Positions 1 through 37,923 of a stretch of 64,000 bases of DNA are shown here, one piece after another (position 1 is the first letter of the stretch; every line of letters starts with the position of its first letter). The notes below the pieces were generated by a model that saw nothing but the letters and a program-made list of their open reading frames with translations, ran no database searches and was not told where the DNA came from. Origin of the DNA: Candidatus Poribacteria bacterium (GTDB lineage: Bacteria > Poribacteria > WGA-4E > WGA-3G); NCBI GenBank assembly GCA_965246985.1, contig OZ251998.1, positions 6,505,657 through 6,569,656 on the forward strand. Reading direction: 5' to 3'. The position numbers and the translations under genes are program-made.

Positions 1-711
1 TTGTGGATTCTGTCTATGAAGTTCTCGTCTGCGTATAGGGATAGGCGATATACAGAATATATCCGTGTTATCTACAATAGGATTACCCCCGATAGTGTGA
101 TATGCCAAACACCAAGAATCTACACAATGTGCCTCAAAGGTTTCTGATAACTTGTTAGACGATTTCTTGAGACCGAGCCTATCACGTATCTCTTTGGTTT
201 CCCAACCTTGAAGGGTTAGCAACTTCCACCGCTTTTCTATTTCTGTGTAGAACCACTGCTTACCGACTTCCAATGGACTAAAGGATTTATTCCACTTCTT
301 AGCATGCTGTAGCGTCCGTGCCTTCATGTCTTCTACACAAACGTATGTGATTGGGTAAAGTTTGGACAACCAATCAAGCACCCGTAGTTTCCAATCCCAT
401 CTTGCACGTGTGCCTGCGGGTATCCGCTCTCTGTTGGCAAGGCGATTAGTGCGGTTCTTGCGATTTGGACACTTCCGTGAACGCCTACCTCTACGCAACT
501 CACGACGCTTTTGAACTTTTTTGCCCACATTGCTATGAGCATCTGCTTGAACATTGAAGTAGGTATGTGTTTCCGATTTGACGGTAAAGCCTTCTTTCTG
601 ACTACCGGGGTCAACACCTACACAAATCTCTTGTGTATCTCTATCAGACGGTTCTTTGTTGAGACGGATACAATATATGCCGTTATCCCAATAATACCCA
701 ATTAACCCCAT
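1..711 (-). CDS. IscB/IsrB-like (OMEGA-family) RuvC-fold nuclease, C-terminally truncated by the window edge; lacks an HNH insert
   Basis: Open minus-strand frame of 237 codons from ATG at 711 to the window start with no stop; it is absent from the ORF track because it has no stop in the window. My translation is MGLIGYYWDNGIYCIRLNKEPSDRDTQEICVGVDPGSQKEGFTV...KKVQKRRELRRGRRSRKCPNRKNRTNRLANRERIPAGTRARWDWKLRVLDWLSKLYPITYVCVEDMKA...ETFEAHCVDSWCLAYH.... It shows a RuvC-I-like motif (VGVDPGS), an Arg-rich bridge-helix-like segment, a RuvC-II-like motif (VCVED) and a RuvC-III-like motif (H-x2-D-S-x2-LA). About 65 aa lie between motifs II and III, with no Cys/His HNH pattern. In-frame stops lie just upstream of the ATG, so a PLMP-type N-terminal domain is either absent or lost. 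Confidence 0.4.
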   Translation of the reverse strand, partial: MGLIGYYWDNGIYCIRLNKEPSDRDTQEICVGVDPGSQKEGFTVKSETHTYFNVQADAHSNVGKKVQKRRELRRGRRSRKCPNRKNRTNRLANRERIPAGTRARWDWKLRVLDWLSKLYPITYVCVEDMKARTLQHAKKWNKSFSPLEVGKQWFYTEIEKRWKLLTLQGWETKEIRDRLGLKKSSNKLSETFEAHCVDSWCLAYHTIGGNPIVDNTDIFCISPIPIRRRELHRQNPQ

Positions 712-1098
712 TTGTAGCGCGAGGTCCCTGTGCCTCGCAATGCTGACTTGATCAAAAGACTTCTAATCACGTTAATTGGGTATAAGGTGTCGCTGCGCTA
801 CGTTGGACGAGTTTCCTCGCACGTGCAGCATGCATTGGCATAAGGTGTTGTCCATCTTTTGTCTTTACAGGTACAAACATAAGTTTGTATTCTCCTTTTC
901 AGGGTTTATGTTTCCCCATCCAGATCACAGTGTCCAAGAAGAATCAGACTTGGGGAGCATCCGAAACATTGCTCTAACTGCCACGCTAGGACACCGCGAT
1001 ATATTACTGTAGAAAACTGTTTAACTTGTGGAGTGGACGCTGGCTACGCTTCGCACAAGCCTCGCCTTTTAAGGCGAGGTAGTTGACTTTTAGTACAT

Positions 1099-1608: not shown

Positions 1609-2379
1609 TTATTCAATCATTCCCGTTTGTGGGCTTGAGGCAGTCGCGTAGAGTTTCCGAGGGATACGTCCTGCTAAAAATGCTGCTCTACCTGCTTCAA
1701 CCGCTTTCTTCATCGCCTCCGCCATCAGTACGGGACGATGTGCTTTCGCGACTGCTGTGTTGAGCAGTACACCGTCACACCCTAACTCCATCGCTATCGC
1801 TGCATCCGATGCTGTCCCGACACCGGCATCCACAATGAGCGGCACTTGTACGAGATCTCGGATAATCTGGATGTTATACGGATTACGGATCCCCATCCCT
1901 GAGCCAATCGGCGCACCCAGTGGCATCACCGCTGCACAACCGATGTTTTCCAATTTCTTACAAGTAATCGGATCATCATTACAATATGGAAGCACAGTGA
2001 AACCGTCTTTGACCAATGTTTCCGCTGCACTGAGCAGCTGCTCCACATCCGGGAATAGCGTCTGTTCATCCCCAATAACTTCGAGTTTGATAAGCGATGT
2101 CTCAAGTGCTTCGCGCGCAAGGTTCGCAGTTAGGATCGCGTCCTTCGCTGTGAAACAGCCAGCGGTATTCGGGAGGATCGTCATACCACGTTCACGTAGG
2201 AGCGCGAACAGGTTTTCACCGGAGGTGTCCGTAAATTTCACACGGCGCATCGACACCGTCGCGATTTCGGCACCACTCGCGGCGATAGCCTCCGTCATTA
2301 TATGGAAACTCGGGTAACCTGCTGTTCCAATAAGTAGCCTTGATGTATAAGTTTGGTCTGCGATTTTGAATTCTTGCAT
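1609..2379 (-). CDS. thiG: thiazole synthase ThiG
   Basis: 256 aa, the ThiG length. Shows the characteristic LIGTAGY..., KLEVIGD and [11 protein letters not shown]...[10 protein letters not shown] motifs. Confidence 0.9.
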
Positions 2380-2432
2380 ATTTTTAATGATTGGGTTTGC
2401 TCAGTTATTTCCGAGACCTACTGGCTAAAACC

Positions 2433-2738
2433 CTATTTTTTGTAGAGTGGTACGCCGATACGTTCAATCTGTTCAACCATTTCAGGGTTACGGATGTTCT
2501 CGAAGATAGACAAATCGATGGTATAAGGTAGCAGCTGATCATCCAGATCATTCGCGATTCGGGAGAGGATTGTGTGTGTCAGCGCATCCCCACCGCGAAG
2601 CGTTAGGTCAATATCAGATCCGTTTTTATAGTCACCTCTGGCGCGCGAACCGTACAACACCACCTCTTCTACCTGCGGATATTGAACGAAAACATCGCGG
2701 ATTTTTTGGAGCGTCTGGTTAGATAAGCCGTATTTCAT
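2433..2738 (-). CDS. minimal nucleotidyltransferase (MNT/MntA-like antitoxin)
   Basis: 101 aa with the GSRARGDY...SDIDL nucleotidyltransferase motif (GS-x9-D-x-D). Its start lies 2 nt after the stop of the upstream HEPN-family gene. Confidence 0.75.
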   Translation of the reverse strand: MKYGLSNQTLQKIRDVFVQYPQVEEVVLYGSRARGDYKNGSDIDLTLRGGDALTHTILSRIANDLDDQLLPYTIDLSIFENIRNPEMVEQIERIGVPLYKK

Positions 2739-2740
2739 TT

Positions 2741-3190
2741 TTAAAGGTTTCCTGCCTCTTTCAACTGTTCCAAGTGAACGAGGAACCTTTCAAATTCAGG
2801 AAAATAAGTAGTGCAGATAGCAGTGACAACTTGGGCTGCGGTTTCCTCATCGTAAGTATGAGAGGTTAAGTTGCGTTTGTCAACCATGTCCATCCAAGCT
2901 TCGCCGTTTTCAATCAGACCGTTCCTAAAAGCCTCTCGGGTTGTGTCGCGCGAACCGTACAGATTCACTGTACCTTGCGCTTCAAGGAAGTTCTTCAGCG
3001 TCTTCCAAGCAAGTTCATGCGTGTATTCAAAGCCTTGTATCAATCCTTGTGCTTCTAAGTCTGAGAGTTCCCGTTGTTCCGCAAGCTTGACTGCTGCCTT
3101 TAATCGAGCGAAAGCCCTCTCAAAACTATTCGCGCGTTGAATCCAACGAATCTCTTGGCTTTTCATGGTGTTCTGCCTACAGTTATCCAC
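2741..3190 (-). CDS. HEPN-superfamily 'nucleotidyltransferase substrate-binding' protein (HI0074/HepT-like toxin partner of MNT)
   Basis: 149 aa. Contains an R-x4-H motif (RNLTSH), the HEPN Rx4-6H signature. Forms a two-gene module with the MNT gene. A likely true start is the internal ATG at 3166 (MKSQEIRW...). Confidence 0.7.
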   Translation of the reverse strand: MDNCRQNTMKSQEIRWIQRANSFERAFARLKAAVKLAEQRELSDLEAQGLIQGFEYTHELAWKTLKNFLEAQGTVNLYGSRDTTREAFRNGLIENGEAWMDMVDKRNLTSHTYDEETAAQVVTAICTTYFPEFERFLVHLEQLKEAGNL

Positions 3191-3200
3191 GAGAAATTTT

Positions 3201-3300
3201 TAAATTAGTCAGGACTTACGCAATTTTTCCATGAAACGCTACATATTGCGCCATTGACGAGGTTAGGAAACCTCGCCAGCAAGGGGGACTGCGTAAGTCC
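3201..3300. repeat. palindromic extragenic element at the toxin-antitoxin/thiS boundary
   Basis: An inverted repeat, ggacttacgcaa ... ttgcgtaagtcc, encloses an inner hairpin cgaggttaggaaacctcg followed by ccagcaaggggg. Related cgaggtt...aacctcg + ccagcRaggg units occur at 56893-56967, and ccccgccagcgaagg occurs at 46139-46153. Confidence 0.4.
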
Positions 3301-3383
3301 TATTAGTATAACACCTGCAAGACCGCTATATCAAGCGATAAAATTATGTCTGTCCGTCTTTGTTGGTTGGCTTTGTAGACGCA

Positions 3384-3590
3384 CTAACCCCCTTGGACGG
3401 GACGGATAATCTCTACATCACTGTTTTCGCGAAGGGGCGTTCCGCGCCACTCCGTTTTCGGGATAACCTCCCGGTCCACAGCCACAGCGATGCCTGCCTG
3501 CATCGGATTCAGTTCTAAAGCGATGAGCAGTTCGTAAATGTTTAAATTCGGATGAACTGTTTTTTCTTCGCCATTCACGCGTATTTTCAT
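3384..3590 (-). CDS. thiS: sulfur-carrier protein ThiS
   Basis: Internal ATG at 3590 gives MKIRVNGEEK...IIRPVQGG, a 68-aa ubiquitin-like protein with a C-terminal GG. The ORF-track ORF is over-extended at its N-terminus. Confidence 0.8.
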   Translation of the reverse strand: MKIRVNGEEKTVHPNLNIYELLIALELNPMQAGIAVAVDREVIPKTEWRGTPLRENSDVEIIRPVQGG

Positions 3591-3629
3591 TGTTTTCCAA
3601 GAGTGGTTACGGCACACGGCGTGTGCCTA

Positions 3630-4769
3630 CTACCTTAAAAACCTGTCTAACTGGAAGGGAGCGATTGTCTCTGAAGTTTCACCTGTCAAAATTAGTTTGG
3701 CTATCTCGTAAGCCGTAACAGGCGTAAGTAGAATACCGTTGCGATAATGCCCCGTTGCATATATCAGATTTTCAACAGGTGTTTTGCCGAGTATAGGTGC
3801 GTTGTCTCTGCTACCGGGACGTAAACCCGTCCATGTCTCCAGAATCGGCAGTTCGTAAACACCCGGCACCGCTTCCCACGCCCCACGAAGGAGTTCAAAC
3901 ATACCGCCAGCGGTTAGACGCATGTCAAATCCCATCTCCTCGCTCGTGGCACCAACGATAAGTCTGCCATCCGCTCTCGGCACCAGATATACCGATGTCG
4001 GATACCTTGCTCTGACGGTGCGGATGACGTTTTTGACCGTAATCCCGGCTTCCATCTGCAATGCCAACATTTGCCCTTTCACGGGACGCACTGGCGGACG
4101 GATGGCAGCTGGAAGTCCGTCAATCTGTGCCGATTCGCATCCGGCTGACAGCACAATAACATCAGCGTTTTGTGTTCCGCTGTCTTGTGTCTGGACACCG
4201 GTCGCAACACCGTTTTCAATATGGATATTTTCGGCCGCGTTGTTTTCATGCAACACACCGCCGCATCTCTGGTAAGCACGTTGCAATGCTGTTACCATCA
4301 GCCGATTGTCAACCTGATGGTCGGTCGCACAGCGGATGGCTGCAGTTATGCGAGGCGAAAGGACCGGTTCAATTTCACGCGCTTCTCGTCCGGTCAACCA
4401 CTGGACATCTAATCCTAAATCTTGTTGTGCAGTGTAGAGGTGCCGAAGTTGATGTGTATCATCAGTCTCTAATCCAACGATGAGCGTGCCTTCCACCCGA
4501 TAGCCGACAGACATCTGCGCGTCTGCCTCTAATTCGACGACCCATTGCGAATAACGTTCTAAGCTTTGGCAGCCGAGTTTAAGGAGTTCTGGTTCTTCGC
4601 TATGTGCTTCAGCGAGTGGCGCGAGCATACCAGCGGCTGCCCAAGAAGCAGCACGCCCGGCTTCAGCGCGATCATAAATGGTGACGGCAGCACCCGCTTT
4701 CGCAAGCTGCCACCCGACACCGAGTCCAATCACACCACCCCCGATGATAAGAATCTTTTTATTTGCCAT
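3630..4769 (-). CDS. thiO: glycine oxidase ThiO (FAD-dependent)
   Basis: Start chosen at MANKKILIIGGGVIGLGVGWQLA (ATG at 4769), a GxGxxG FAD-binding motif. Adjacent to thiS. The ORF-track ORF is extended to 4841. Confidence 0.85.
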   Translation of the reverse strand: MANKKILIIGGGVIGLGVGWQLAKAGAAVTIYDRAEAGRAASWAAAGMLAPLAEAHSEEPELLKLGCQSLERYSQWVVELEADAQMSVGYRVEGTLIVGLETDDTHQLRHLYTAQQDLGLDVQWLTGREAREIEPVLSPRITAAIRCATDHQVDNRLMVTALQRAYQRCGGVLHENNAAENIHIENGVATGVQTQDSGTQNADVIVLSAGCESAQIDGLPAAIRPPVRPVKGQMLALQMEAGITVKNVIRTVRARYPTSVYLVPRADGRLIVGATSEEMGFDMRLTAGGMFELLRGAWEAVPGVYELPILETWTGLRPGSRDNAPILGKTPVENLIYATGHYRNGILLTPVTAYEIAKLILTGETSETIAPFQLDRFLR

Positions 4770-4813
4770 TTTTTTATTATGGCGTTTTCGCTCCCGATCA
4801 ATGTAAGCTAAAA

Positions 4814-5800
4814 CTATTCTCCTAAAACATTCACGAAACAATCTTTTGCTTCAACTGCTTTAGAGATCAACCCTTTTTGATATGCGAATTTTGCGAACGC
4901 AGCCCACTTTTCTTCAGATTGCACCTGCGTTGTTGCGAATAGATCCAACGTATCCCGAAAAGCGAGTTTTTCTAATTCTTTGCTGGCATCCGGATTTGCC
5001 TTAAAAAAGAGTTGTAGCGCATCATCTGGTTTTTCTTTCGTGAACTGAATTGCTTCCTGAATCGCCATCATCAGTTTTTTAGCAGTTTCTGGATGTTCTT
5101 CCAAATAAGCGTCATTAGTGATGATGACTAATTCATAATAGTCCGGAATACCGTGCTTTTCAAGTGCCAAATAATCGGCTTCTGCTCCTTCAAGCTTCAA
5201 CAAGTTAATCTCATAATTCCGAAAGGGCCCGATAACTGCGTCAATTTGACCGCTTAGGAGAGGTGCCAAAATATTCGTGCCTACGTTTATCAATTCATAG
5301 TCATCTTCCGTTAATCCGGCGTTCGCAGCGATTGCATTAAATAGAAGCACATCCAAAGGTGCAACTGTATATCCGATTTTCTTCCCTTTGAAATCTGCTG
5401 GTGTTTTAATGCCTGTTTTCTTCAAGAAGCTAATCGTGTTGAGCGGATGTTCCACGAGTAAACCGATGGATTTGACCGGCAAAGTTTCTTCACTTGCCCG
5501 CGCAATTGTCACACTCTGTTGATAACTAACAGCAAACGGGTATTTCCCTGCCGCTATCAGTTTGAGCGGGGCATCCGGGTCGCCACCCCAACGTAATTCG
5601 ACTTCTAATCCGTGTTTGGCAAAAATCTTGTGCTCCTGTGCAACATAAAGTGGTGCATGATCTATGTTGGGAAACCAATCGAGAAGCAACGTGACCTTCT
5701 CCATTTCAGATTTTTCATGGCTGTCCGCGTTGCTGTTAATGTGTCCTGTTAAGAGTATACCACAACCGATAAGAAACATTAAGCAAATTGCTGTCTTCAT
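4814..5800 (-). CDS. NMT1/THI5-like (ThiY-type) substrate-binding protein of an ABC transporter for a thiamine pyrimidine precursor
   Basis: 328 aa with an N-terminal signal/lipoprotein-like region (LIGCGILL). The family assignment (NMT1/THI5-like, ThiY-type) rests on the signal-peptide/size profile and its place in a riboswitch-controlled operon with a permease and thiO. Confidence 0.7.
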   Translation of the reverse strand: MKTAICLMFLIGCGILLTGHINSNADSHEKSEMEKVTLLLDWFPNIDHAPLYVAQEHKIFAKHGLEVELRWGGDPDAPLKLIAAGKYPFAVSYQQSVTIARASEETLPVKSIGLLVEHPLNTISFLKKTGIKTPADFKGKKIGYTVAPLDVLLFNAIAANAGLTEDDYELINVGTNILAPLLSGQIDAVIGPFRNYEINLLKLEGAEADYLALEKHGIPDYYELVIITNDAYLEEHPETAKKLMMAIQEAIQFTKEKPDDALQLFFKANPDASKELEKLAFRDTLDLFATTQVQSEEKWAAFAKFAYQKGLISKAVEAKDCFVNVLGE

Positions 5801-5842
5801 GAGAATTTTCCTTCCTTATGCTCCGATATGCGTGAGGCACGC

Positions 5843-6685
5843 CTACCGAATATCTAATGTGTTGTGCTGATGTCGCCACGGCATTGCGTAACGCTCCAAC
5901 AGCGTCATCAATCCAAAGAGACTTAAACCTAAAAGTGTTAAACAGAAAATGGCGGCAAATACGAGTGAAATCTGCATCCGTCCATTCGCATACAACATCA
6001 GGAAGCCGAGTCCTGCCTCTGCTCCCACCCATTCACCGATGACCGCGCCAATCGTAGAAATTGATATACCGATCTTCGCGCCGGAAAAAATAAACGGCAA
6101 TGCCGACGGGATACGCACTTTCCAAAGTATCTGCCACCGAGTCGCCCGCAAAATCCGAAACAGGTTTACCGTGTCCGGATCGGTGGACTTCAAACCGTCT
6201 AATGTGTTCAGCACGATCGCAAAAAACACAATCAGTGCCGCCATGACTACTTTTGAGGCAATCCCGAATCCGAACCACAGTACTAACAATGGCGCGATAG
6301 CAAACACCGGCACCGTTTGTGAACCGATAACATACGGATAGAAGGCTTTCTCCAGCATCGGAAACTCAAACATCAGCACGGCTAACGGAATGCCGATGCT
6401 AATCGCGAGGACAAACCCAAGGAGCATCTCTTCCAAGGTTACAAGCGTATGTCTCAGTAATTGCGAATGTTCCACAAATAGCGTCACCACAATTTTCGAG
6501 GGTGCTGGCAAAATGTAGCGCGGTATCTCGAAAAAATGCACGGCTCCTTCCCATACCCCTAATACTGCGAATAGGATAGCCACAGGGACCGCGAATTTGC
6601 TGAACATTATGTATCCACTCCTTAACGCAAAAAAGCCGTCTTCCGTTTTGGGTATATGCCAAAAGGAAGCGGCTCCGCGTCTCAT
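5843..6685 (-). CDS. ABC transporter permease (NitT/TauT family, ThiX-like)
   Basis: Polytopic membrane protein with a binding-protein-dependent transport signature region. Probable true start is the internal Met at about 6607 (MFSKFAVPVAILF...). The ATPase gene is not in the operon. Confidence 0.7.
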   Translation of the reverse strand: MRRGAASFWHIPKTEDGFFALRSGYIMFSKFAVPVAILFAVLGVWEGAVHFFEIPRYILPAPSKIVVTLFVEHSQLLRHTLVTLEEMLLGFVLAISIGIPLAVLMFEFPMLEKAFYPYVIGSQTVPVFAIAPLLVLWFGFGIASKVVMAALIVFFAIVLNTLDGLKSTDPDTVNLFRILRATRWQILWKVRIPSALPFIFSGAKIGISISTIGAVIGEWVGAEAGLGFLMLYANGRMQISLVFAAIFCLTLLGLSLFGLMTLLERYAMPWRHQHNTLDIR

Positions 6686-6739
6686 CGCAAGAGGTTAGCA
6701 ATCGAAGGTGTAACCTGTGGATACTCCAATTGCTAAAGT

Positions 6740-6860
6740 CGCTTAAGAAGGGATGAAATTTGCCCTTCTTCCTATTTCCCTACGCTGGCATGACCCAGAT
6801 CAGGTTCAATGGGTGTTTTCTCAGCTCTTAAGCAGATAAGAGCACCCCATGATGTTGTTC
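6740..6860 (-). promoter_or_regulatory. TPP (thi-box) riboswitch controlling the thiXY-thiOS-thiG operon
   Basis: The minus strand reads ...GGGGUGCU-[P3 hairpin gcucuua/uaagagc]-CUGAGA-aaACACCC-auuGAACCUGAUCUGGGUCAUGCCAGCGUAGGGAA.... This carries all the conserved thi-box blocks. It sits 60-170 nt upstream of the first transporter gene, followed by an expression-platform hairpin (gaagaaggg...cccttcttaa). Confidence 0.8.
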
Positions 6861-6984
6861 AAATATTATTATACCTTATTCTGACTTTTAATGCAAATAT
6901 TTCGGTATATTCAACACCAGGGTCATTTAGTTTTAAACAAATTCTCGGATTGTCTAAATTTTTGGATCCTCTTTTTCAAGCTCG

Positions 6985-8265
6985 GCGCGGTTCCATGAAG
7001 ATTAAATAATTAATTCGGTAATAATCCGACATAGTGTAGCAACTCCTGTGACCCGCCTTTGAACTGTTCCATGAAGTCGCTGACTTTCTCCTGAAGGGCT
7101 GTCCAGTCATTGCTGAGACGATGCAGATGTATGACAGCTTGACGCGCCCAGCGCCACAACTTCTCAATCGGATTCGTCCAACAGGCATACGTTGGGAGCT
7201 GCAATATCTCAATAGGGAGTTTCTCAAGTTTGCCTATTTTCTTTGACGGTTTCTCGCTCCAATTCGGTGGGGTCGGTCTAACAAACCTCGTCGTCTGTGG
7301 CAGAAGTGCTGCCATAAGATTCGCGTGAAAGTGGATCGCCCGATTGTCCTGGATCAAATAGATGCGTTCAGCGTTTGGGTAGCGTTGGCAAATCTGGGTG
7401 TAAAATGTATGGAGTGCGACAACCGTGCAGCTTTTGACTTGCTGATAAACAACATCTCCGGTGTGTGGGTTGAGCGCCCCGATGCCATAGCAGGTCTCCT
7501 CTGGGAGATAACTCTGGCGTGCCAAAGGACATTTCGTCCCTGTCTCCGCCCAGTCTTTTGCGACTCTCGGTTGTAGATTGAAACTAAACTCGTCTTGGTA
7601 AACGACAACGCAAGTTTCTGGGTTTTCACGGGCTTCTTCTAACGCTTGCTTGATGCGAGAAAGTTTTTCAGCATAATCGGTATCAGGACTCCGCAGATAT
7701 TCTCTGGCACGCTTATAGCTGAGACCCAAGCGTGAGAAGATCTGATGAATGCCGGGGAGCGATAGACCCTCAAGCCACGGCACGACCTGACCGAGACTGC
7801 GGAGCGTCCAGCGCGTTTGATGCTCATTGACGCTTCCCGGATCCTGACCGATTGCCACTAAGAGTTCCGACCCGGCTTCTTCGGGCGACTTAGGTGAAAA
7901 AGCAGGTTTGCGACCTCGACCAGGTTTATTAGACAACCCGCTAATACCGTGTTCGCGATACCGACGCAGCCAAGCATAAACGGTATCGGGGTCGCGTTTT
8001 TTCAACAAACCTCTGCGGGCGACTTCATGTGGAGAAAAGCCTTCATGGATTTTCAACAACGCTGTCGCACGCTCTCGAAGATAAGCCGGTTCGCCTTTAT
8101 CCCGAAGATCAACGAGGGCTTGTATTTCGCCTTCAGTTAACTCCAACTTATGGTGTTTTGCCATCAGAGAATACCTCCTTTGGCAATAGGATAACACGAA
8201 TAACAATATTACCGAATTAATATTTTAATCTTCATCAAACCGCGCCTACCGGGCCTGGGGGGTCC
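6985..8265 (-). mobile_element. IS630-family insertion sequence, intact, with about 39-bp imperfect terminal inverted repeats
   Basis: Left inverted repeat 6985-7023 is ggcgcggttccatgaagattaaataattaattcggtaat. Right inverted repeat 8227-8265 in reverse complement is ggcgcggtttgatgaagattaaaatattaattcggtaat. They enclose one DDE transposase gene. The exact ends and target-site duplication were not resolved. Confidence 0.8.
7010..8164 (-). CDS. IS630/Tc1-mariner family DDE transposase
   Basis: An N-terminal helix-turn-helix region (…LRDKGEP…WLRRYREHGISGL) is followed by a DDE_3 core (VVYQDEFSF…, IYLIQDNRAIH…, PTYACWTNPIEKLW). Start taken at MAKHHKLELTEGE (ATG at 8164). Confidence 0.85.
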   Translation of the reverse strand: MAKHHKLELTEGEIQALVDLRDKGEPAYLRERATALLKIHEGFSPHEVARRGLLKKRDPDTVYAWLRRYREHGISGLSNKPGRGRKPAFSPKSPEEAGSELLVAIGQDPGSVNEHQTRWTLRSLGQVVPWLEGLSLPGIHQIFSRLGLSYKRAREYLRSPDTDYAEKLSRIKQALEEARENPETCVVVYQDEFSFNLQPRVAKDWAETGTKCPLARQSYLPEETCYGIGALNPHTGDVVYQQVKSCTVVALHTFYTQICQRYPNAERIYLIQDNRAIHFHANLMAALLPQTTRFVRPTPPNWSEKPSKKIGKLEKLPIEILQLPTYACWTNPIEKLWRWARQAVIHLHRLSNDWTALQEKVSDFMEQFKGGSQELLHYVGLLPN

Positions 8266-22808: not shown

Positions 22809-24249
22809 AATTCTTGCTATCGGTGCGGGTGGTTTACAACGCGCCTTAACCCATGAATTTGTCCATATCCTCAACGAACGGAATCTCTATAACGGCGGTA
22901 TCTTCGTCGGACAGCCACGTGGCACTGAGAAAGCCGATGCCTTTAACCAACAAAACGGAATATATCATGTCGTCACGTTTGACCTAAGTGGTATCCACGA
23001 TATCCGACAGGTTTCGAGCGTTGTCGGTGCGACTACGCTCGCTACAGAAGCCGGTCGTGAGCAGTTCTATGCCCAAGCCGAAAATCCGCTTGACCTTATC
23101 CTTATCGGTGTAACCGAAGCTGGGATCGCTAAGGGTGAACTGGCGATGGATGTGCTGGATGAGACCCTCTACCGCTATTTTTGCCACCACGGTACAGACG
23201 CGACACTCTGTGTCATCAATACAGATAACCTCCGAAATAATGGCGATGTTATTCGCGATATTCTTTGCAACGAATATCCAAGACGGAGCGATGATTACGC
23301 GAAGTGGTTGGAGACAAATGTCGGCTTTCTTAACGAAATGGGCGACCGACTCGTACCACAAGTCTATGCCGTTCCTGATGAAATTCAGGCATCCGCACGC
23401 GCACAAATTGAGCATTCTGATGAATTAATAACATACGCGGAGACACTATCTGCAACACCGCTTATTCTGGAAGATTTAGACGACATGCTACGCGTCCCGT
23501 TCGGTGAACTTCAGGACTCCGGCGTTATTGTTAGTCAGGAGAGTATTGAATCGTATCACGACTGGAAACTCCTTTTGGTGAATTCTGTTCATGTACCGGG
23601 GATTACGCACAAAGGGGCACTCTCCGGCATCGAATATGTCAACGAAGCAGCGTCACACCCAACATTCGCACCACATCTGGAACGTCTGATGAACGGATAT
23701 GCCGAGATTGTAGAAGCGGACATCCCGATAACGGGTAAAAGTGCAAGAGAATACACACTGGAATTCGTTAATCGCATTCGTCGAGTCAAAGACGACAATG
23801 CTCGGATTAACATCATTGAAACCGTGAAACTCCGCGAACGTGCCGCTGATATCGTCCGCTCACCGAACTATAATGCCAGCACAGAGCTCTTCAAATCCGA
23901 TTTCGCCTATTCCTTCGCAACGGTGCTCCGATTTCTAACACCACACGCAATCTCGTCTCTTGATGACTACAAGAGTATCACCGATACCGGTACAGCGTAT
24001 GAAATCCGAGACCCTGACCGGACGATACAGGACATTCTGAGGGGGGCATTTGGCGCGAGCCGAACAGACCTGGAAGAACGGATTGAGACTATTTTCTCAA
24101 ATGCAGCACTGTGGTCTCCAGCTGGGGCAACATCACCAAGCGGTTTGAATAAGAACCAAGACTTTATGGAACGGATTGTCCAATATTATCATCGGTTGGT
24201 TAACGGAGAGACGTGTCTTGCGGTTTTGGAGGGTATCTCCACAAAGTAG
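22795..24249 (+). CDS. mannitol dehydrogenase-family oxidoreductase (UxaB/UxuB/MtlD-like)
   Basis: N-terminal Rossmann KILAIGAGGLQRALTHEF is consistent with the mannitol-dehydrogenase family. Start ATG at 22795, preceded by AAAGGAGAAAAT. Overlaps the glycosyltransferase stop by 14 nt. Exact substrate unknown. Confidence 0.5.
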   Translation: MLPTKILAIGAGGLQRALTHEFVHILNERNLYNGGIFVGQPRGTEKADAFNQQNGIYHVVTFDLSGIHDIRQVSSVVGATTLATEAGREQFYAQAENPLDLILIGVTEAGIAKGELAMDVLDETLYRYFCHHGTDATLCVINTDNLRNNGDVIRDILCNEYPRRSDDYAKWLETNVGFLNEMGDRLVPQVYAVPDEIQASARAQIEHSDELITYAETLSATPLILEDLDDMLRVPFGELQDSGVIVSQESIESYHDWKLLLVNSVHVPGITHKGALSGIEYVNEAASHPTFAPHLERLMNGYAEIVEADIPITGKSAREYTLEFVNRIRRVKDDNARINIIETVKLRERAADIVRSPNYNASTELFKSDFAYSFATVLRFLTPHAISSLDDYKSITDTGTAYEIRDPDRTIQDILRGAFGASRTDLEERIETIFSNAALWSPAGATSPSGLNKNQDFMERIVQYYHRLVNGETCLAVLEGISTK

Positions 24250-25492
24250 AAGGGGAAGGATGGCGGTATGTGTTATCAGAATCACAGAAAGCGCGGTGGG
24301 TGACATCCATGCAGCACGTATTGCCGGGTAAACACCAAAAATGACCCCCATGAAAATAGAAAAGATGACAGATATAACCTATACTCCGCACTTCTAATTT
24401 CGGATTTTTGGTATTTATTTTTTAAACCCACGTGGTTCCAACGTTCAACAAGCAATTTCAGGTGAATCAGAGAAGATATACGTGCGAAATGAAATCTTAT
24501 TTACCATCTCTAAATTTTATTATACTGTTTGGATCCTTTCGTGACGTGGGTTTGTCTAAAAATACCAAAATGTGTCAAAACAAGTGCGGAGTGTAGGATA
24601 TAAGTATCCACTGCACGGATAATACCACAGGTCACTCCTCCACAATCGGAACAATACGAACTGCGATGCGTGCCATGCCGTGGGCGAAGAGCCAGCCCCC
24701 GGCAATACCGAGTCTGTGTCTTTTGCGGAGTACCTCCTTGGCAGAGTTAATGACAGTATAGACATCTGTGCCTTTTTGAAAAAAGACGATGAGTCTTTCA
24801 ACATAACGTTCTGAAGATATACGCTGTTGACGTGTTGTCAATGGAACAAAAATGATGTCATCCATTGACATGCCACGGCTGAGGCTTTCGCCTCTGGGCA
24901 CCATGATACCAACCACGCGGCACCTAACCCACCTTCTGCGCCTGAGGCGGATTTTCACCTCTTGTCCAAGTGGCGGAGTATTTCTGAATAACTCTGTAGC
25001 GGCGTTGACACTAAGGACACAAACCTGCTTTGCGTTGTCAACATCGTCTTCAGAAAGGAATCGCCCGTGTTGCACTTCCCATCCCATAATGTGGGCGTAG
25101 TCTGCTGTCACACCTTCAATAGTCGAACGTATTTGGACACCTTGGTTAGATGTAACCCATCTCGGATACTTTCGATTTTGTGGCAAGACATAGAGCACAT
25201 CGGGGCATTCTGCTTCAATGGCACGTGCATCAGCGAGAGAGTATCGCTCGGTTGTCCGCTTCTTCGGCTTTCCCCGTGGATACGTATAAGGGCGGACCCA
25301 GAATCGCACGTGGTTGGGGCCGCCAAGTTTTTCAATGTCGTCGGCTATAATTTTTTGGGTGCCGTCGCCAATGGCCATCATGCAGAGAACACTCGCGACC
25401 CCAATAAGGATACCGAGGATGGATAATCCAGAGCGGAGTCGGTTTTGCTGAAGGTGCGCAATGCCAGAGGTTATCGCATCATAGCACTTCAT
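24250..25492 (-). pseudogene. FtsX/MacB-type ABC permease, cassette copy 1, disrupted by an in-frame deletion and a MITE insertion
   Basis: The N-terminal 255 aa are nearly identical to the intact paralog at 36660-37922. Then an in-frame 258-bp deletion joins …RKRHR to LGIAGGW…. The extreme C-terminus (…GVIFGVYPAIRAAWMSP) lies at about 24290-24350, separated from the body by a 230-bp MITE. Confidence 0.65.
24372..24602. mobile_element. MITE with about 60-bp terminal inverted repeats inserted in permease copy 1
   Basis: Left end is atataacctatactccgcacttctaatttcggatttttggtatttattttttaaacccacgtggt. Right end in reverse complement is atatcctacactccgcacttgttttgacacattttggtatttttagacaaacccacgtcac. 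The interior is AT-rich and non-coding. Confidence 0.6.
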
Positions 25493-27551
25493 GGTATAAA
25501 TAAGGTTTCATGTCCCAAAGCAGAACGGTACCATCATAACTACCACTTGCCAGAAGTTCGCCATCCGGTGTAAAAGCTAAATCCTGTACATCCGTTGTAT
25601 GTCCCCAGAAAGTGTGTATATTTTCACCCGTTGCGACCTCCCATATCCTTATGGACACTCTGTCCACCCCCCTTATCCACCACGCCCCAGAGACGAGGTA
25701 TTTTCCGCAGGGTGAAAATGTAAGCGCAAACGGTTTGCGACAGGTTTCAGGTAGCAGGATAAGCATGCGCGTTTCCAAGGTTGTTGCATCCCGCAACCGA
25801 ATATGATCATATATCCCACAAGCGATTGTCGTGCCACAGGGCGAGAAAGCGAGTTTGTAAGGGTTACACTTATAGCGTCTCCCTATTTTTCTATTTTTTT
25901 CGATATATTGGTGTATCTGATCTGGATCCCCTCTATAGAGGGACCTATCTTCTGGTAGTTCTGTAGGGAACAATCCGATCTGTTCACCACTGACTATATC
26001 CCAGAGTCTTACTGTGCGATCTTTGGCGACGGTTGCGAGGTGTTTACCGCTTGGATGGAAAGCGACTGTTAGAATATAATTTGTATGTCCTGTAAGCATA
26101 TTGACTTTCTTCCCAGACTGTGTGTCCCATACACCAATGTCTCCTGTACCGCCTGTAGGTGCTGTACCAATGAGATGTTCACTCGTAGGTGAAAAACACA
26201 TTGCAGCGTCAAATCCTTTACTGTCTGAGAGTTTTATAATGAGGGTTTCAGACGCAATATCCCAGATTTCAATTGAACCCCTCGGAAGTTTGCAAAGTGC
26301 CAGTCGTTCTCCACAAGTAGACAATGTGCTGACTCGGAATAACTGCTGTCTTTCTTCCGTTGTGAGATTTTTAGTTTGAGTCGTGTATTGTGCCTGCATC
26401 CGCTGCGTTGGGAAAACCTGTTCTGTTTGTCTCTGTGCCACATTCCAGCATACGAGCTGCGCACCAAACATTTCCCGACTTGTTAATGTCTTACCGTTTG
26501 TAAAAAAAGCAACTGAATGTACAACAGGTTGATGATCAGCGGCATTTGAAACTTTCGTTGACAGTGGCCCGACTGTCCATACACAGAGCTCGCTATGCGA
26601 CAGGATGGTCGCGATGTGTGCTCCATCGGTTGAAAAGTGATCATGCCTGCGGTTCTGACATTCAAAGGTATCTATTTTCTCTTTTCGGATAGCATCCCAA
26701 ATCACAACTTGATGATCGTAAATATCGGCAACGCGCAGTGTGCTATCAGGTGTATAGGCAGGGATTAACCTTCTCCCATCATAAATCGTGGGTTCCGTTT
26801 CCAAAGTGCCGTTGTAAACATTCCACACCAACACCTCAGTATTCTGATTGACAGCAGCAAGATATTGCCCACAAGGCGAAAAGATGAGACTACGGTACGC
26901 CAAGGGTGCTGAGCAGTGAAGGTCCGCAATGTGTTCACTTGTTTCTATATCGGAAATCGTGAGCGTGTGACGCGGGGTTCCAGCGGACACATATCCGAGT
27001 AAGTTCCCTATCGGAGAGAAACAAATTGGAAAGTGGTGTCCCCTCTCTTCTTCTGCTACGTCAATCGGAAAGTTTGTGATGGGTGCGTTCGTGTCTTTTT
27101 GCCAAGCGTAGACAACATTTTGCTTGTCAAAACAAGAGGCAGCTAAGTATTGGTTGTCTTGAGAAAAGCAGAGCTGCGAAAAACATCCTAACATTGCTTT
27201 TACATTCTTGCGATGGTCTATCTTTGCGAGGCACTGCAGACTTTGTGTATCCCATACCTTCACAACACCATCAAGATTGCTAGTGACAATCAACTGCGTG
27301 TCGTGTGAAAAGGCAATGGTATTAAGCATCCCGCGTTCTGTTTCAAATAAGGCAAGCGGTTTCAACGACAACCTATCATATAACCAACAGCCGATCGGCG
27401 TTGCTACAGCCAGATATTTACCATCAACCGAAAAGGACATATCCGACACGCGCCCCCTTGCTAATCTGCCGATCGCACCTTCAGGCAGGTGCCAGGTTGT
27501 CACATCCGTATCAACAGCACTTCGCATCAAATTAGACTTTTCTGATTGCAA
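25479..27551 (-). CDS. cytoplasmic WD40 beta-propeller protein, cassette copy 1 (690 aa)
   Basis: No signal peptide. N-terminal W-x-LPEGA-x-GRLARG module, then at least 12 WD repeats, ending …ASGSYDGTVLLWDMKPYLYHEVL. The stop overlaps the start of the permease. Confidence 0.8.
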   Translation of the reverse strand: MQSEKSNLMRSAVDTDVTTWHLPEGAIGRLARGRVSDMSFSVDGKYLAVATPIGCWLYDRLSLKPLALFETERGMLNTIAFSHDTQLIVTSNLDGVVKVWDTQSLQCLAKIDHRKNVKAMLGCFSQLCFSQDNQYLAASCFDKQNVVYAWQKDTNAPITNFPIDVAEEERGHHFPICFSPIGNLLGYVSAGTPRHTLTISDIETSEHIADLHCSAPLAYRSLIFSPCGQYLAAVNQNTEVLVWNVYNGTLETEPTIYDGRRLIPAYTPDSTLRVADIYDHQVVIWDAIRKEKIDTFECQNRRHDHFSTDGAHIATILSHSELCVWTVGPLSTKVSNAADHQPVVHSVAFFTNGKTLTSREMFGAQLVCWNVAQRQTEQVFPTQRMQAQYTTQTKNLTTEERQQLFRVSTLSTCGERLALCKLPRGSIEIWDIASETLIIKLSDSKGFDAAMCFSPTSEHLIGTAPTGGTGDIGVWDTQSGKKVNMLTGHTNYILTVAFHPSGKHLATVAKDRTVRLWDIVSGEQIGLFPTELPEDRSLYRGDPDQIHQYIEKNRKIGRRYKCNPYKLAFSPCGTTIACGIYDHIRLRDATTLETRMLILLPETCRKPFALTFSPCGKYLVSGAWWIRGVDRVSIRIWEVATGENIHTFWGHTTDVQDLAFTPDGELLASGSYDGTVLLWDMKPYLYHEVL

Positions 27552-28529: not shown

Positions 28530-28658
28530 TCATTGAGGCGCAAGGAGCCGGGAGAGCAAGTTTGGTGTAAGGGTTGGGTGACCCAACCCCTACGAGATCA
28601 GAAACTTCATCAAATCGCGCCTAAAAGAAGTAGGTATGGCGCAAAGAACGTAAGTCCG

Positions 28659-31239: not shown

Positions 31240-31302
31240 TCACTTCTCCTTATGAATGGTTATCGGTTATGAGAAAAAATGCTTCACCGATAACTATTTG
31301 TG

Positions 31303-32570
31303 TTATGTATCCGTTCGGAGGGCATCGATAGGGGCCATCTGCGATGCTCGGATAGCAGGATAGACACCAAAAATGATACCCATGAAGATTGAAAAGAGGA
31401 CAGAAATCACCATCCATCGCACAGACAGCACCACCGGCCACACCTCTACAATGGGTAGGATACGGACAGCAACGCGTGCCATACCGTGGGCGAAGAGCCA
31501 GCCACCAGCGATACCGAGCAGTGAACCACAAAAACAGAGGCTCATAGATTCGGTTAGAATTGATAGAAGATATCGATGCATCTTGCGCCGACGGCTTTTC
31601 GCAAACCGATCTCGCGCGTCTTCTCACCGACGGAGACAAGGCAGATATTCATAATCCCGATGCCACTGACAAGCAACGAGAAACCCGCAATGCCACCCAA
31701 GGCAATCTTTATCATTTTTTCAATGCGTTCAAGTTGTTTGACAGTTCGTTTGGGAATCCAATCATATACAAAGTTATCGGTACCCCGGTGTCTTTTACTA
31801 ATCACCTTCCGGGCGGATTTTACCACATCGGAAGCGTCTACGTCTTTTTGAAAAAAGATAATAAGCCTTTCAACATAGCGGATGCCCGTAATACGTTGTT
31901 GATACGTTGTTATCGGAACGCATATCATATCATCTAAACTCCCCCAGGTAATACTGAGGTTCCTCCCTTTCGGTGCCATGGTACCGACAACGCGCATCCG
32001 AACGGGTGTTTGCCGCCAATGATTCCGAAGTTTTATCTCTTGACCGATGGGGGAGACATTTCCGAACAACTCTTCAACTACGTTTGCACCCAAGACGCAG
32101 ACCTGTGTGGCGTTGTCTATATCGTTCTCGGAGAGAAATCTACCCGCTTGCAACTCGTACCGCAAGAGTTCGGCATAGTCTGCTGTTACGCCTTCCAGAT
32201 CAGCACCTCTGAATTGCCCGCCCAGGGGGCTGGTGACAAATGTATTATTTCTCCGATTCCGAGGTAGGACCCCTGTGACCTCCGGGCATTCTGCCTCAAT
32301 CGCAGGAGCGTCCTCCAAAGTATATCGCTCCGTTGTTGGATATCGTCGGCCGCGTCTCCAGCCAGATGTGTGTGTCCAGAATTGGATTTGATTTGCCCCC
32401 CCGATTTTTTCGATGTCATCGGCGATGATCTGTTTCGCGCCATCCCCGATGGCCATCATACAAAGGACACTTGCAATGCCAATGAAGATGCCGAGGATGG
32501 ATAATCCGGCACGGCTTTTATTTTCTTGGATATGCTTGATACCTGCAGCAATTGCCTCATGGAATTTCAT
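31303..32570 (-). pseudogene. FtsX/MacB-type ABC permease, cassette copy 3, split by a 1-nt deletion (frameshift)
   Basis: ORFs 31554-32570 and 31303-31581 overlap by 28 nt in different frames. Alignment to copy 2 shows caatttttgacagaatctat in copy 2 against caattctaaccgaatctat here, one base shorter. Confidence 0.65.
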
Positions 32571-32595
32571 GCGGCTCCACCCAATCTATGTTGGA

Positions 32596-34590
32596 TTAAG
32601 AACCCATCACGGATTTCAGGTCCCAGAGGAGGATGGTGCTGTCAAAACTCCCACTCGCTAAGAGGGTGCCGTCGGGTGAAAACGCGAGATCTTGGACATC
32701 GGTCGGGTGTCCCCAGAAGGTGGCGATGTTTTCGCCGGTGGCAACTTCCCACAAGCGAATAGGCACCTTTTCTGTTTCCACGGCCCTATTCCACCACGCG
32801 CCAGAAGCAAGATATTGCCCACAAGGTGAAAACGCCAAGGCACGCGGATTTCCATTGGTAGGTGCATGAGGAAGAGTCAAAAGAGTTCGACAATTATTGA
32901 CATCCCACAATCGGATTTCCGTTGCCATGCCACAAGCGATCTTATGACCGCAAGGTGAAAACGCGACAGTATAGACACGGTTGACACGGAACTCCGGATT
33001 TTCTTTCCCCGTATCGATGTCCCATAGATTTGCCATCGTGCCAGAAGAACTCGGAACACTTACAAGGTGTTTACCGTCGTGGCTGAATATAAGGCGGCTG
33101 ATACGATTATGATCATCATCCCAATTCCCTTCTAAGGGGAGAGTGTGTGTGAGCACACAGCGCACGTCACCACTTCTCATATCCCATACATACAGATGCC
33201 CTTTGCTATCCCCGCACGCGATGAGATGTCGTAGCGGGGCGTGTGCTGCGGCAGTCACCACTGCCTCTGGGTCGGGAAGTGTAAATGTCATAGGTGTCGT
33301 GTTTTCGTCGGCTTCCCCTATTTTAACGGTTATTTTAACAGTATTTTCATCATACGCAAATGCTGTCGAGTGAATTTTCTCTGAAGTGGACACAGAAACG
33401 GCTCGTGGGTCACCGGATATTTTGAAAAAAGTGGGCGGTTGCATGGGGTTGGCAATATCCCATAATAGCGTGCTTCCATACCTTACAAACCCGGCTGCCA
33501 CCTTTTTGCCATCTTGTGAGAACGCTACGGAATTCGGAAAACCGACATGTAAATGCGGCACCTTGCGGGGTTTGGTATCCCCGGGTGACCAGACTGCCCA
33601 TTCCTTTCCCCCAGCAACGACAAAATGCGAACTGCTTGAAAAAAGTGCTTTATCAATCTCCCATTCCTTTTCAACGTACGTGTAGCGTTTTTCATGACGT
33701 TCCACGTCCCACACGACGACAGTGTTTCTTTCCAGAGCATTTTCCAGAGTCTGAAGAACGCCTTCCTGTGAATAGCAGACGCTCATGCGAGAGGTGCCAT
33801 CATAGTTCTGATATACTCGCTGCTGTTCCCAAGTATTCACATTCCATACGTGCACTGTGCCTTTATCGCTGCCGATGGCCAGAGTTTGTCCACAAGGTGA
33901 AAAGCAGAGGCTGCGCACAAAGCTCGGTTGTTCGGTAAGACAGGCGATGCGCTCACCGGTTACGACATCCCACACCAAAACAACATCGGGGCCATCCGTT
34001 GTCCCGGCGGGAGCCGTACACGCCAGCAGGCGACTGTCTGGCGAAAAAGCAACGGGTCGAGGGAGGGAGGGGTAAGAACTGCGTGTTTCTCTTTGGGGGT
34101 CATGGAACGTAGCCAGCGGTGTGCCGGTTCTGGGGTCCCAGGTGTAGACAATCTCACAACGGCTACCTGTTGCGGCCAGGTGCTGGTTATCAGGTGAAAA
34201 GGCAAGAGACTTAATTGCAGTCGTCCTAGGGACTGGCTTTTTTAACCCTGGCCGCACAATTTTTGTAATGCAGGTGCTCCGCTGGATATCCCACACTTTG
34301 ATAACACCATCCCAGTTGCCGGTCGCAGCCAATCGCCCATCAAGAGAAATAGTAATGGCACCCAGCATTCCTCGTTCTGTTTCCCATAGAGCAACAGGTT
34401 GCATTGTCGCGAGTTCATACCACCAGAGCCCAATTTTGGTTGCGGCTGCGAGGTATGCTCCATCCGGCGATACTGCCATCGCCATCACAGTTCCACGCCC
34501 GAACCGAGAAATCGCACCATCCGGTAAAGCCCAGCTCATTGGATGACCTTTATCAGCGACAATGGGCGTGGACCCTGTTTTTTCTGACAT
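32596..34590 (-). CDS. cytoplasmic WD40 beta-propeller protein, cassette copy 2 (664 aa)
   Basis: AGGAGG sits 8 nt upstream of the ATG. N-terminal W-x-LPDGA-x-SRFGRG module, WD repeats, and a C-terminal …ASGSFDSTILLWDLKSVMGS. Confidence 0.8.
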   Translation of the reverse strand: MSEKTGSTPIVADKGHPMSWALPDGAISRFGRGTVMAMAVSPDGAYLAAATKIGLWWYELATMQPVALWETERGMLGAITISLDGRLAATGNWDGVIKVWDIQRSTCITKIVRPGLKKPVPRTTAIKSLAFSPDNQHLAATGSRCEIVYTWDPRTGTPLATFHDPQRETRSSYPSLPRPVAFSPDSRLLACTAPAGTTDGPDVVLVWDVVTGERIACLTEQPSFVRSLCFSPCGQTLAIGSDKGTVHVWNVNTWEQQRVYQNYDGTSRMSVCYSQEGVLQTLENALERNTVVVWDVERHEKRYTYVEKEWEIDKALFSSSSHFVVAGGKEWAVWSPGDTKPRKVPHLHVGFPNSVAFSQDGKKVAAGFVRYGSTLLWDIANPMQPPTFFKISGDPRAVSVSTSEKIHSTAFAYDENTVKITVKIGEADENTTPMTFTLPDPEAVVTAAAHAPLRHLIACGDSKGHLYVWDMRSGDVRCVLTHTLPLEGNWDDDHNRISRLIFSHDGKHLVSVPSSSGTMANLWDIDTGKENPEFRVNRVYTVAFSPCGHKIACGMATEIRLWDVNNCRTLLTLPHAPTNGNPRALAFSPCGQYLASGAWWNRAVETEKVPIRLWEVATGENIATFWGHPTDVQDLAFSPDGTLLASGSFDSTILLWDLKSVMGS

Positions 34591-36245: not shown

Positions 36246-36529
36246 TTTTTGTCAATTTTTTTAAGAAAAATCAAAAAATTGTTTTCTTCGGAAACTTTAC
36301 ATCATTTCTAATATCATCTATCATCGGTTTATCATCGGTTTCGCCGAGGTACGGGAGTTGGGTGAACAATGTTTGGTGTAGGGGTCGGGGCCCCCCAACC
36401 CCATAGGTGTAAATTTAAGAAAAAAGTTATGCGCTAAGGCCCTCCGGACCGGTAGGTGCGGTTTTGCGGCGTACCATAGGTGTAAATTTAAGGGAAAGTC
36501 TGTGTATTTTTAGTGATTAAAAAAGTGTT

Positions 36530-36659: not shown

Positions 36660-37922
36660 TTATGTATCCGTTCGGAGGGCATCAATCGGAGACATCCGCG
36701 ATGCTCGGATAGCAGGATAGACACCAAAAATGATACCCATGAAGATTGAAAAGAGGACAGAAATCACCATCCATCGCATAGATAGTACCACCGGCCACAC
36801 ATCCACAATCGGCAAGATGCGGACAGCAACGTGTGCCATGCCGTGGGCGAAGAGCCAGCCCCCGGCAATACCGAGAAGGGTACCACAGAGACAGAGGCAG
36901 ATAGATTCTGTCAAAAATTGATAGAAAATGTCGATTCGCTTTGCACCGACAGATTTACGTAGACCTATTTCTCGCGTCTTTTCACCAGCGGAAATGAGAC
37001 ACATATTCATAATACTGATGCCGCTCACAAAGAGCGAGAACCCAGCGATGCCACCCAGTGCGATTTTTATCACTTCTTCAATGCGTTCCAGCATCCTGAT
37101 TTTGCCTGTAGGTCTCCAGTAACCAATAAAATCCGTGACACCTCTGTGTCTTTTGCGGAGTACCTCCTTGACGGAGTTAATGACAGTATAGACATCTGTA
37201 CCTTTTTGAAAAAAGACGATGAGTCTTTCAACATAGCGTTCTGAAGATATACGCTGTTGACGTGTTGTCAATGGAACAAAAATGATGTCATCCATTGACA
37301 TGCCACGGCTGAGGCTTTCGCCTCTGGGCACCATGATACCAACCACGCGGCACCTAACCCACCTTCTGCGCCTGAGGCGGATTTTCACCTCTTGTCCAAG
37401 TGGCGGGGTATTCCTGAATAACTCTGTAGCGGCGTTGACACCAAGGACACAAACCTGCTTTGCGTTGTCAACATCGTCTTCAGAAAGGAATCGCCCGTGT
37501 TGTACGCCCCATCCCATAATGTGGGCGTAGTCTGCTGTCACACCTTCAATAGTCGAACGTATTTGGACACCTTGGTCAGATGTAACCCATCTCGGATACT
37601 TTCGATTTTGTGGCAAGACATAGAGCACATCGGGACATTCTGCTTCAATGGCACGTGCATCAGCGAGAGCGTATCGCTCGATTGTCCGCTTCTTCGGCTT
37701 TCCCCGTGGATACGTATAAGGGCGGACCCAGAATCGCACGTGGTTGGGGCCGCCAAGTTTTTCTATGTCGTCGGCTATAATTTTTTGGGTGCCGTCGCCG
37801 ATGGCTATCATGCAAAGAACACTCGCGACCCCAATAAGGATACCGAGGATGGATAATCCAGAGCGGAGGCGGTTTTGCTGAAGGTGCGCAATGCCAGAGG
37901 TTATCGCATCATAGAACTTCAT
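36660..37922 (-). CDS. FtsX/MacB-type ABC transporter permease, cassette copy 3, the only intact copy (420 aa)
   Basis: N-terminal TM1 (…RSGLSILGILIGVASVL…), a periplasmic MacB-like domain of about 200 aa, and C-terminal three-TM FtsX domain ending …GIIFGVYPAIRASRMSPIDALRTDT. No ATPase gene nearby. Confidence 0.85.
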   Translation of the reverse strand: MKFYDAITSGIAHLQQNRLRSGLSILGILIGVASVLCMIAIGDGTQKIIADDIEKLGGPNHVRFWVRPYTYPRGKPKKRTIERYALADARAIEAECPDVLYVLPQNRKYPRWVTSDQGVQIRSTIEGVTADYAHIMGWGVQHGRFLSEDDVDNAKQVCVLGVNAATELFRNTPPLGQEVKIRLRRRRWVRCRVVGIMVPRGESLSRGMSMDDIIFVPLTTRQQRISSERYVERLIVFFQKGTDVYTVINSVKEVLRKRHRGVTDFIGYWRPTGKIRMLERIEEVIKIALGGIAGFSLFVSGISIMNMCLISAGEKTREIGLRKSVGAKRIDIFYQFLTESICLCLCGTLLGIAGGWLFAHGMAHVAVRILPIVDVWPVVLSMRWMVISVLFSIFMGIIFGVYPAIRASRMSPIDALRTDT

Positions 37923-37923
37923 G

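Follow-up and report, generated by a model that had tools for sequence, protein, structure and literature searches.

A probable MITE of an apparently undescribed Poribacteria family within a decayed permease paralog

The window (the whole stretch of 64,000 nucleotides that was analysed) carries three paralogous cassettes, each consisting of a WD40-repeat gene followed by a MacB/FtsX-type permease gene whose start overlaps the WD40 stop. Only permease copy 2 is intact among the three; copy 3 is frameshifted near position 31555, and copy 1 is represented by a truncated 5' part and a short 3' remnant with an insert between them. The genes and gene fragments of the cassettes are as follows.

24133-27551, 31294-34590 and 36660-40080: the three WD40 plus permease cassettes
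36660-37922, minus strand: permease copy 2, intact, 420 aa, with MacB_PCD and FtsX domains
24632-25492, minus strand: 5' part of permease copy 1, an ORF of 286 aa whose one domain is the MacB periplasmic core
24712/24713, minus strand: junction of a 267-bp in-frame deletion in copy 1 relative to copy 2 (BLASTN of copy 1 against copy 2)
24294-24371, minus strand: 3' remnant of permease copy 1 (VISVIFSIFMGVIFGVYPAIRAAWMSP...), degenerate, with the normal stop codon lost

The 286-aa ORF of copy 1 matches Pfam MacB_PCD (E=2.7e-41), has no FtsX domain and ends at a premature TGA (24632-24634) at a position where copy 2 has TGG. Because BLASTN identity to copy 2 shifts from 97% upstream of the 24712/24713 junction to 85% downstream of it, copy 1 looks like a chimera or recombinant, its 5' part being recent and its 3' part older. 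The 3' remnant is 76% identical to copy 2 and 74% identical to copy 3. Copy 1 is a decayed pseudogene with at least three lesions besides the insertion, and the inserted element accounts for one of several lesions in a decaying permease paralog. The element may have helped to inactivate the gene or may have arrived in one that was already dead.

The sequence-only reading had proposed a non-coding MITE at 24372-24602 that separates the main part of permease copy 1 from its C-terminal codons. This location is confirmed when copy 1 is aligned to intact copy 2 (36660-37922), the insertion point falling between codons ...W-I-L-I-S and V-I-F... in the last transmembrane segment of the FtsX-domain permease paralog. 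A discrete insert does lie at the proposed place, but the proposed span takes in both the element and its flanking duplications, and the element proper is confined to 24378-24597, which matches the family profile described below over its full length (E=3.5e-59). Its components, and the corresponding uninterrupted sites in the other two permease copies, are listed here.

24372-24377: left copy of the target-site duplication, ATATAA, identical to 24598-24603
24378-24597, minus strand in the family orientation (A arm to B arm): the MITE, 220 bp, 36% GC, starting with CCTATACTCCGCACTT and finishing with AAGTGCGGAGTGTAGG
24378-24433, plus strand: B arm, with terminal CCTATACTCCGCACTT (24378-24393), block TTTTTGGTATTT (24405-24416) and block AAACCCACGT (24424-24433), from the arm alignment
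24544-24597, minus strand: A arm, with terminal CCTACACTCCGCACTT (reverse complement of 24582-24597), block TTTTGGTATTT (24560-24570) and block AAACCCACGT (24544-24553)
24598-24603: right copy of the target-site duplication, ATATAA
36761-36766, minus strand: paralogous empty site in permease copy 2, hexamer AAATCA, to which both element flanks align
31404-31409, minus strand: paralogous empty site in permease copy 3, to which both element flanks align

The comparison of filled and empty sites with the two paralogs is clean and shows the ATATAA repeat to be a target-site duplication of 6 bp. The gap between the flanking homology blocks is 12 nt in copy 2 and 238 nt (12 + 226) in copy 1, and excising 226 bp (the element plus one ATATAA) restores codon-by-codon colinearity with both paralogs, the restored copy 1 reading SVQWILISVI versus SMRWMVISVL in copy 2. 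The duplication that the earlier reading had wished to define from filled and empty sites could thus be read within the window itself, where two paralogs serve as empty sites.

The non-coding nature of the insert was also borne out. The insert at 24372-24603 is AT-rich (35-38% GC versus 45-50% in the surroundings), and the 220-bp element has no coding capacity, with stops in all six frames, no long ORF and no Pfam-bearing ORF. Its inverted symmetry is far above chance, as the arm-versus-arm local score is 26 compared with 8.1 ± 1.6 (maximum 14) for 1000 shuffles, and the DNA fold z-score is -4.7. The inverted repeats of about 60 bp had been called nearly perfect; the repeat is real, but it is not perfect and the left and right ends differ. 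The terminal 16 nt of the two arms, with the sequence CCTAYACTCCGCACTT, match at 15 of 16 positions, the first 60 nt match at 44 of 60 with small gaps (~73%), and an ungapped repeat finder returns 36 nt at 75%. What the arms have in common is a series of blocks, namely the 16-nt terminus CCTAYACTCCGCACTT, TTTTGGTATTT and AAACCCACGT, separated by spacers that are unlike one another. Neither a second copy nor a solo end was found elsewhere in the 64-kb window.

We then searched collections holding one genome per GTDB species with an exact two-block pattern of 20 bases, ACTCCGCACTT-N(8-15)-TTTTGGTAT. The window's own genome lies outside these collections (its locus did not come up in the scan), so that for this genome the count is one copy in 64 kb; exact look-ups of three window proteins, meant to reach strain variants with an empty site, likewise gave no record. 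The scan returned 39 loci, of which 37 are true family members and two are chance matches. Six Candidatus Poribacteria assemblies supplied 35 of the 39 (18 in OZ250160.1, 13 in OZ244616.1, and one each in OX638352.1, CBDANF01, CBDAUI01 and OX639973.1), and two of the 39 are small contigs in MAGs labelled other than Poribacteria. Every true match proved to be either an element of 219-223 bp bounded by these two ends or an A arm belonging to such an element. The complete copies besides the window's number 36, all 219-223 bp long; five Candidatus Poribacteria MAG assemblies account for 33, and the sixth holds one cut-off copy; the other copies that the earlier reading had made its test do exist, in other genomes. 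This restrictive exact pattern gives minimum counts of 19 copies for OZ250160.1 and 13 for OZ244616.1, and since further copies missed by the pattern adjoin the matches (for example L015:1963-2185), the true copy numbers are higher.

Beyond these genome collections, no true copies were found in viral contigs, JGI metagenome contigs or plasmids. A scan of viral contigs with the 16-nt end gave 12 matches, all by chance and none with an extended arm (11 inside one phage gene family and one unrelated); the general two-block pattern gave nine matches in JGI metagenome contigs, again all by chance, and BLASTN against plasmids gave nothing meaningful. The chance matches to the two-block pattern in Chitinophagaceae-type contigs (L021, L052, L054, L057, L059 and L060) all lie in one conserved coding stretch, which by eye resembles the first membrane-spanning segment of a MacB/FtsX-type permease; we regard this as a coincidence with no link to the MITE. 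In line with the proposal that the family is undescribed, Rfam gave no match, and the full-text literature searched contained no description of Poribacteria MITEs or insertion sequences or of the end sequence. The family is thus apparently undescribed and apparently limited to Candidatus Poribacteria.

The copies differ widely in their apparent age. Thirty copies from OZ250160.1, OZ244616.1 and CBDANF01 have a mean pairwise identity of 96.4%, some being identical, which, judged by this similarity, implies a recent transposition burst in these three assemblies. The window copy is 79-83% identical to the others (32 compared), its closest relative being the OX638352.1 copy, and this divergence of 17-21% from every other known copy suggests that it is old and probably no longer active, a fossil. 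In an alignment its A arm agrees with the A arms of the L001 and L033 copies at each of the first 41 nt, and its B-type spacers are found again in other copies. The window itself comes from a Poribacteria genome: its positions 1618-6902 are syntenic with L036 of Candidatus Poribacteria (OZ250160.1), with 78-86% identical nucleotides, and the permease cassettes match L033 (OX638352.1) at 74-80%. L033 also carries, within 620-858, a MITE of the window copy's subfamily with the duplication TTACAT. It follows a WD40 gene, whose stop is at 604, and ends 11 bp upstream of the ATG (858) of an intact permease of 420 aa. The two loci thus share the type of cassette and differ in the site of insertion.

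To characterize the insertion sites, we used the 37 complete copies with both flanks, the window's counted in. Perfect 6-bp duplications flank 26 of the 37, compared with 16 of 1332 (1.2%) mismatched pairs of left and right flanks. As the base at the left end is always C and that at the right end always G across the family, we assign both to the element, which hence ends in CC...GG and makes a duplication of 6 bp; readings of 8 bp and 7 bp are ruled out. The target consensus N-T-W-W-A-N is AT-rich and weakly palindromic, with T at position 2 in 23 of 26 sites and A at position 5 in 22 of 26. When the element was removed in silico, only one of the 37 sites fell in a stop-free frame of at least 150 aa, versus 76% of random positions in the same loci, and the window copy is among the 36 that lie in no long open frame. 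The intergenic contexts are divergent in 12 cases and convergent in 2. No intact gene holds a copy, and the window copy is the one that lies inside recognisable gene sequence, that of a pseudogene.

Altogether, we find a short non-coding unit (below 300-500 bp) present in multiple dispersed copies, with terminal inverted repeats conserved in 37 of 37 copies and a duplication of fixed length. We are highly confident that 24378-24597 represents a single old copy of a MITE, a non-autonomous DNA transposon of the cut/copy-and-paste type, and belongs to a Poribacteria-restricted family, in keeping with the original interpretation, which is further backed by the empty sites. Weighing against this reading are the single copy in the window and the lack of an autonomous element in the DNA searched.

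DDE transposases are recognised by inverted repeats together with a duplication of fixed length at a target that is weakly palindromic, and it is from the repeats and the duplication only that we infer a DDE mechanism. The enzyme, probably a DDE transposase whose gene lies elsewhere in the genome, would act in trans and bind the 16-bp termini, and probably also the subterminal blocks TTTYGGTATTT and AAACCYRYGT. The target would then be cut with a 6-bp stagger at an AT-rich NTWWAN site and the element inserted, after which gap repair would create the 6-bp duplication. We know of no IS family in the ISfinder tables that combines CC...GG ends with a 6-bp duplication.

The earlier statement that the window holds no autonomous partner with these ends is correct, as the only transposase there (IS630-like, 7010-8206) has unrelated ends, for which reason its element was rejected as the partner. 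Neither the window nor the Poribacteria loci that were fetched (312 kb, 39 loci of 8 kb) contained a transposase bounded by the family's ends, whether the 16-nt end was sought with as many as three mismatches or a profile was used at E<=10. An autonomous copy sought in JGI metagenome contigs as an A arm followed by a non-MITE interior gave no matches, and no autonomous element with these ends was found in viral contigs, JGI metagenome contigs or plasmids. An IS982-type fragment beside the L010 copy and an IS1 in L032 were also rejected as partners, both having unrelated ends.

Three longer variants, all in OZ244616.1 (L008:2646-3605, L010:2224-3310 and L032 from 3312 onward), are built from a 59-nt A arm, the palindrome CCGCGTCACAAGTTGTGACGCGG, AT-rich DNA and nested small repeats (~700 bp), closed in L008 and L010 by a complete MITE. 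In L008 the 6-bp repeat TAGTAT stands at either end of the 960-bp unit, which therefore moved as a whole. These variants were rejected as autonomous elements, their interior having no transposase ORF; the longer form may be a remnant of the left end of the autonomous element. Two composites (M-X-M) occupy orthologous loci of two genomes, L015:1963-3015 in OZ250160.1 and L039:4715-6109 in OZ244616.1, and consist of two MITEs in direct orientation around 610-950 bp that contain an IS3 OrfA-like fragment and small repeats. Their outer flanks are GTCAAC/G(G|T)CAAC and their inner flanks GTATAA/GTATAA, which hints at composite or cointegrate-type events.

The composites, the 960-bp TAGTAT unit, which likewise resembles a cointegrate or composite product, and the missing partner could be taken to mean that the element does not depend on a classical trans-acting DDE transposase for its movement, or that it spreads replicatively by way of cointegrates. 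We consider this very unlikely, since the inverted repeats and fixed-length duplication are those of DDE elements and the composites can also be explained by two nearby copies moving together. It is tempting to speculate, as a rather doubtful but more specific proposal, that the responsible enzyme is an uncatalogued transposase confined to Poribacteria, which would recognize CC...GG asymmetric bipartite ends and two subterminal blocks, cut with a 6-bp NTWWAN stagger and act in part replicatively by forming cointegrates; the swapped M-X-M flanks of L015 and L039 are the hint of such a partly replicative pathway.

The architecture of the family bears on the question of whether these repeats might instead be a dispersed structured RNA gene or a regulatory repeat (an sRNA, or REP/BIME-like) selected for its hairpin. 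All copies share the ends CCTAYACTCCGCACTT...AAGTGCGGAGTRTAGG and a fixed unit of ~220 bp, in which the family alignment shows the A end conserved over ~68 nt, the B end over ~85 nt, and a variable centre. Arms A and B are each conserved across subfamilies and differ in their spacers, GTTTTGACACA in A and CTGATTTCCGA or CTAATTTCGGA in B, with the subterminal blocks TTTYGGTATTT and AAACCYRYGT kept in both arms and across subfamilies. Conservation of ~80% across subfamilies whose hosts differ by ~20% in coding DNA, the preference of the copies for intergenic, mostly divergent-promoter contexts and the position of the L033 copy just upstream of a permease start codon would all suit a regulatory role. 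However, the spacers of the two arms are conserved and yet not complementary to each other, and the RNAalifold covariation term is only -0.78 kcal/mol, with double changes in three of 51 pairs, so that the pattern of conservation does not fit selection for an RNA or DNA hairpin; it is in accord with selection on differentiated left and right ends that a transposase recognises. Rfam 15 has no match overlapping the element at E<=1, and the reading as a structured RNA was dropped on this and on the negligible covariation. A promoter or terminator function was likewise dropped, there being no such signal in the element above shuffles and no orientation bias of the copies relative to flanking genes. 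As REP-type repeats, in addition, make no target duplications, we give the RNA or regulatory explanation very little credence.

The window copy could also be the remnant of a full-length insertion sequence whose interior was deleted in place after insertion, as MITEs are known to arise in this way and another deletion lies nearby in the same gene. This is scarcely credible here: the 219-223-bp architecture and the internal junction are the same in 37 of 37 copies from at least six genomes, and hence the short form is the unit that moves. Lastly, a local palindrome or hairpin that arose in place, to which the single copy in the 64-kb window and the good folding of the single strand might point, is practically excluded by the 36 homologues of equal length that other genomes carry at unrelated sites, the perfect 6-bp duplication of the window copy and the paralogous empty sites without the 226 bp.

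Several other repeats occur in the window. An IS630-like insertion sequence at 6984-8246 encodes a transposase with DDE_3 and HTH domains (7010-8206, minus strand) between 40-nt inverted repeats of 90% identity, and a MITE-like derivative of ~125 bp at 46019-46144 shares its ends, ATGAAGATTAA..AATTAATTCGGTAAT, which enclose a hairpin, GGTGCGGTT..AACCGCACC; this short derivative has seven BLAST matches in five Poribacteria loci. A partial ORF at 1-762 (minus strand) has a homologue in L024 (6271-7314), a protein of 348 aa with an RRXRR domain (PF14239, E=1.7e-27) that looks IscB-like. Positions 1-1094 give 20 BLAST matches in 13 Poribacteria loci and are therefore part of another multicopy element. 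A GC-rich hairpin repeat, TTTGGTGTAAGGGTTGGGTGACCCAACCCCTAC, that looks REP-like or terminator-like is present three times (28561-28593, 36372-36404 and 43212-43244), downstream of paralogous gene blocks.

MITEs are routine in bacteria, and the element is of an ordinary kind; what is new is the family, which is apparently undescribed. Its value is local, in that it gives Candidatus Poribacteria, an uncultivated lineage of sponge symbionts, a defined repeat family with a recent burst (~96% identity) in long-read assemblies, a 6-bp target signature and a strong avoidance of genes. As the family produces spurious ORFs, it is useful as an annotation mask; filled versus empty sites are a possible strain-level marker, and the ends provide a handle for finding the responsible transposase.

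Bacterial MITEs include the Correia elements of Neisseria, RUP of Streptococcus pneumoniae and Nezha of cyanobacteria. Like bacterial MITEs in general, the present family has a length of 100-300 bp, terminal inverted repeats, a duplication, no ORF, an AT-rich composition and many, mostly intergenic copies, and it would likewise be moved in trans. REP/BIME repeats are imperfect palindromes of 20-40 nt that make no target duplication and are mobilised by a RAYT/TnpA-REP protein, and they differ from the 220-bp unit with differentiated ends and 6-bp duplications found here. In the IS1380 family (e.g., ISEcp1) the inverted repeats begin with CCTAG... and the duplications are 4-5 bp. The ends of the Poribacteria family similarly begin with CC(T) and finish with (A)GG, but the duplication is 6 bp, and no IS1380-type transposase was seen near any copy, so IS1380 is at most a lead and membership in it is not supported. 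MITEs derived from IS630/Tc1-mariner elements duplicate TA, in contrast to the 6 bp found here, and the ends of the window's IS630-like element, GGCGCGGTT.CATGAAGATTAA..., are unrelated to CCTAYACTCCGCACTT. The IS630-like system of the window nevertheless offers a parallel in that an autonomous insertion sequence and its short derivatives coexist, and both repeat families are shared with other Poribacteria MAGs. The present family is distinguished by ends that are unusually long (~60-85 nt), with the left end consistently unlike the right, and by its occurrence in Candidatus Poribacteria assemblies only.
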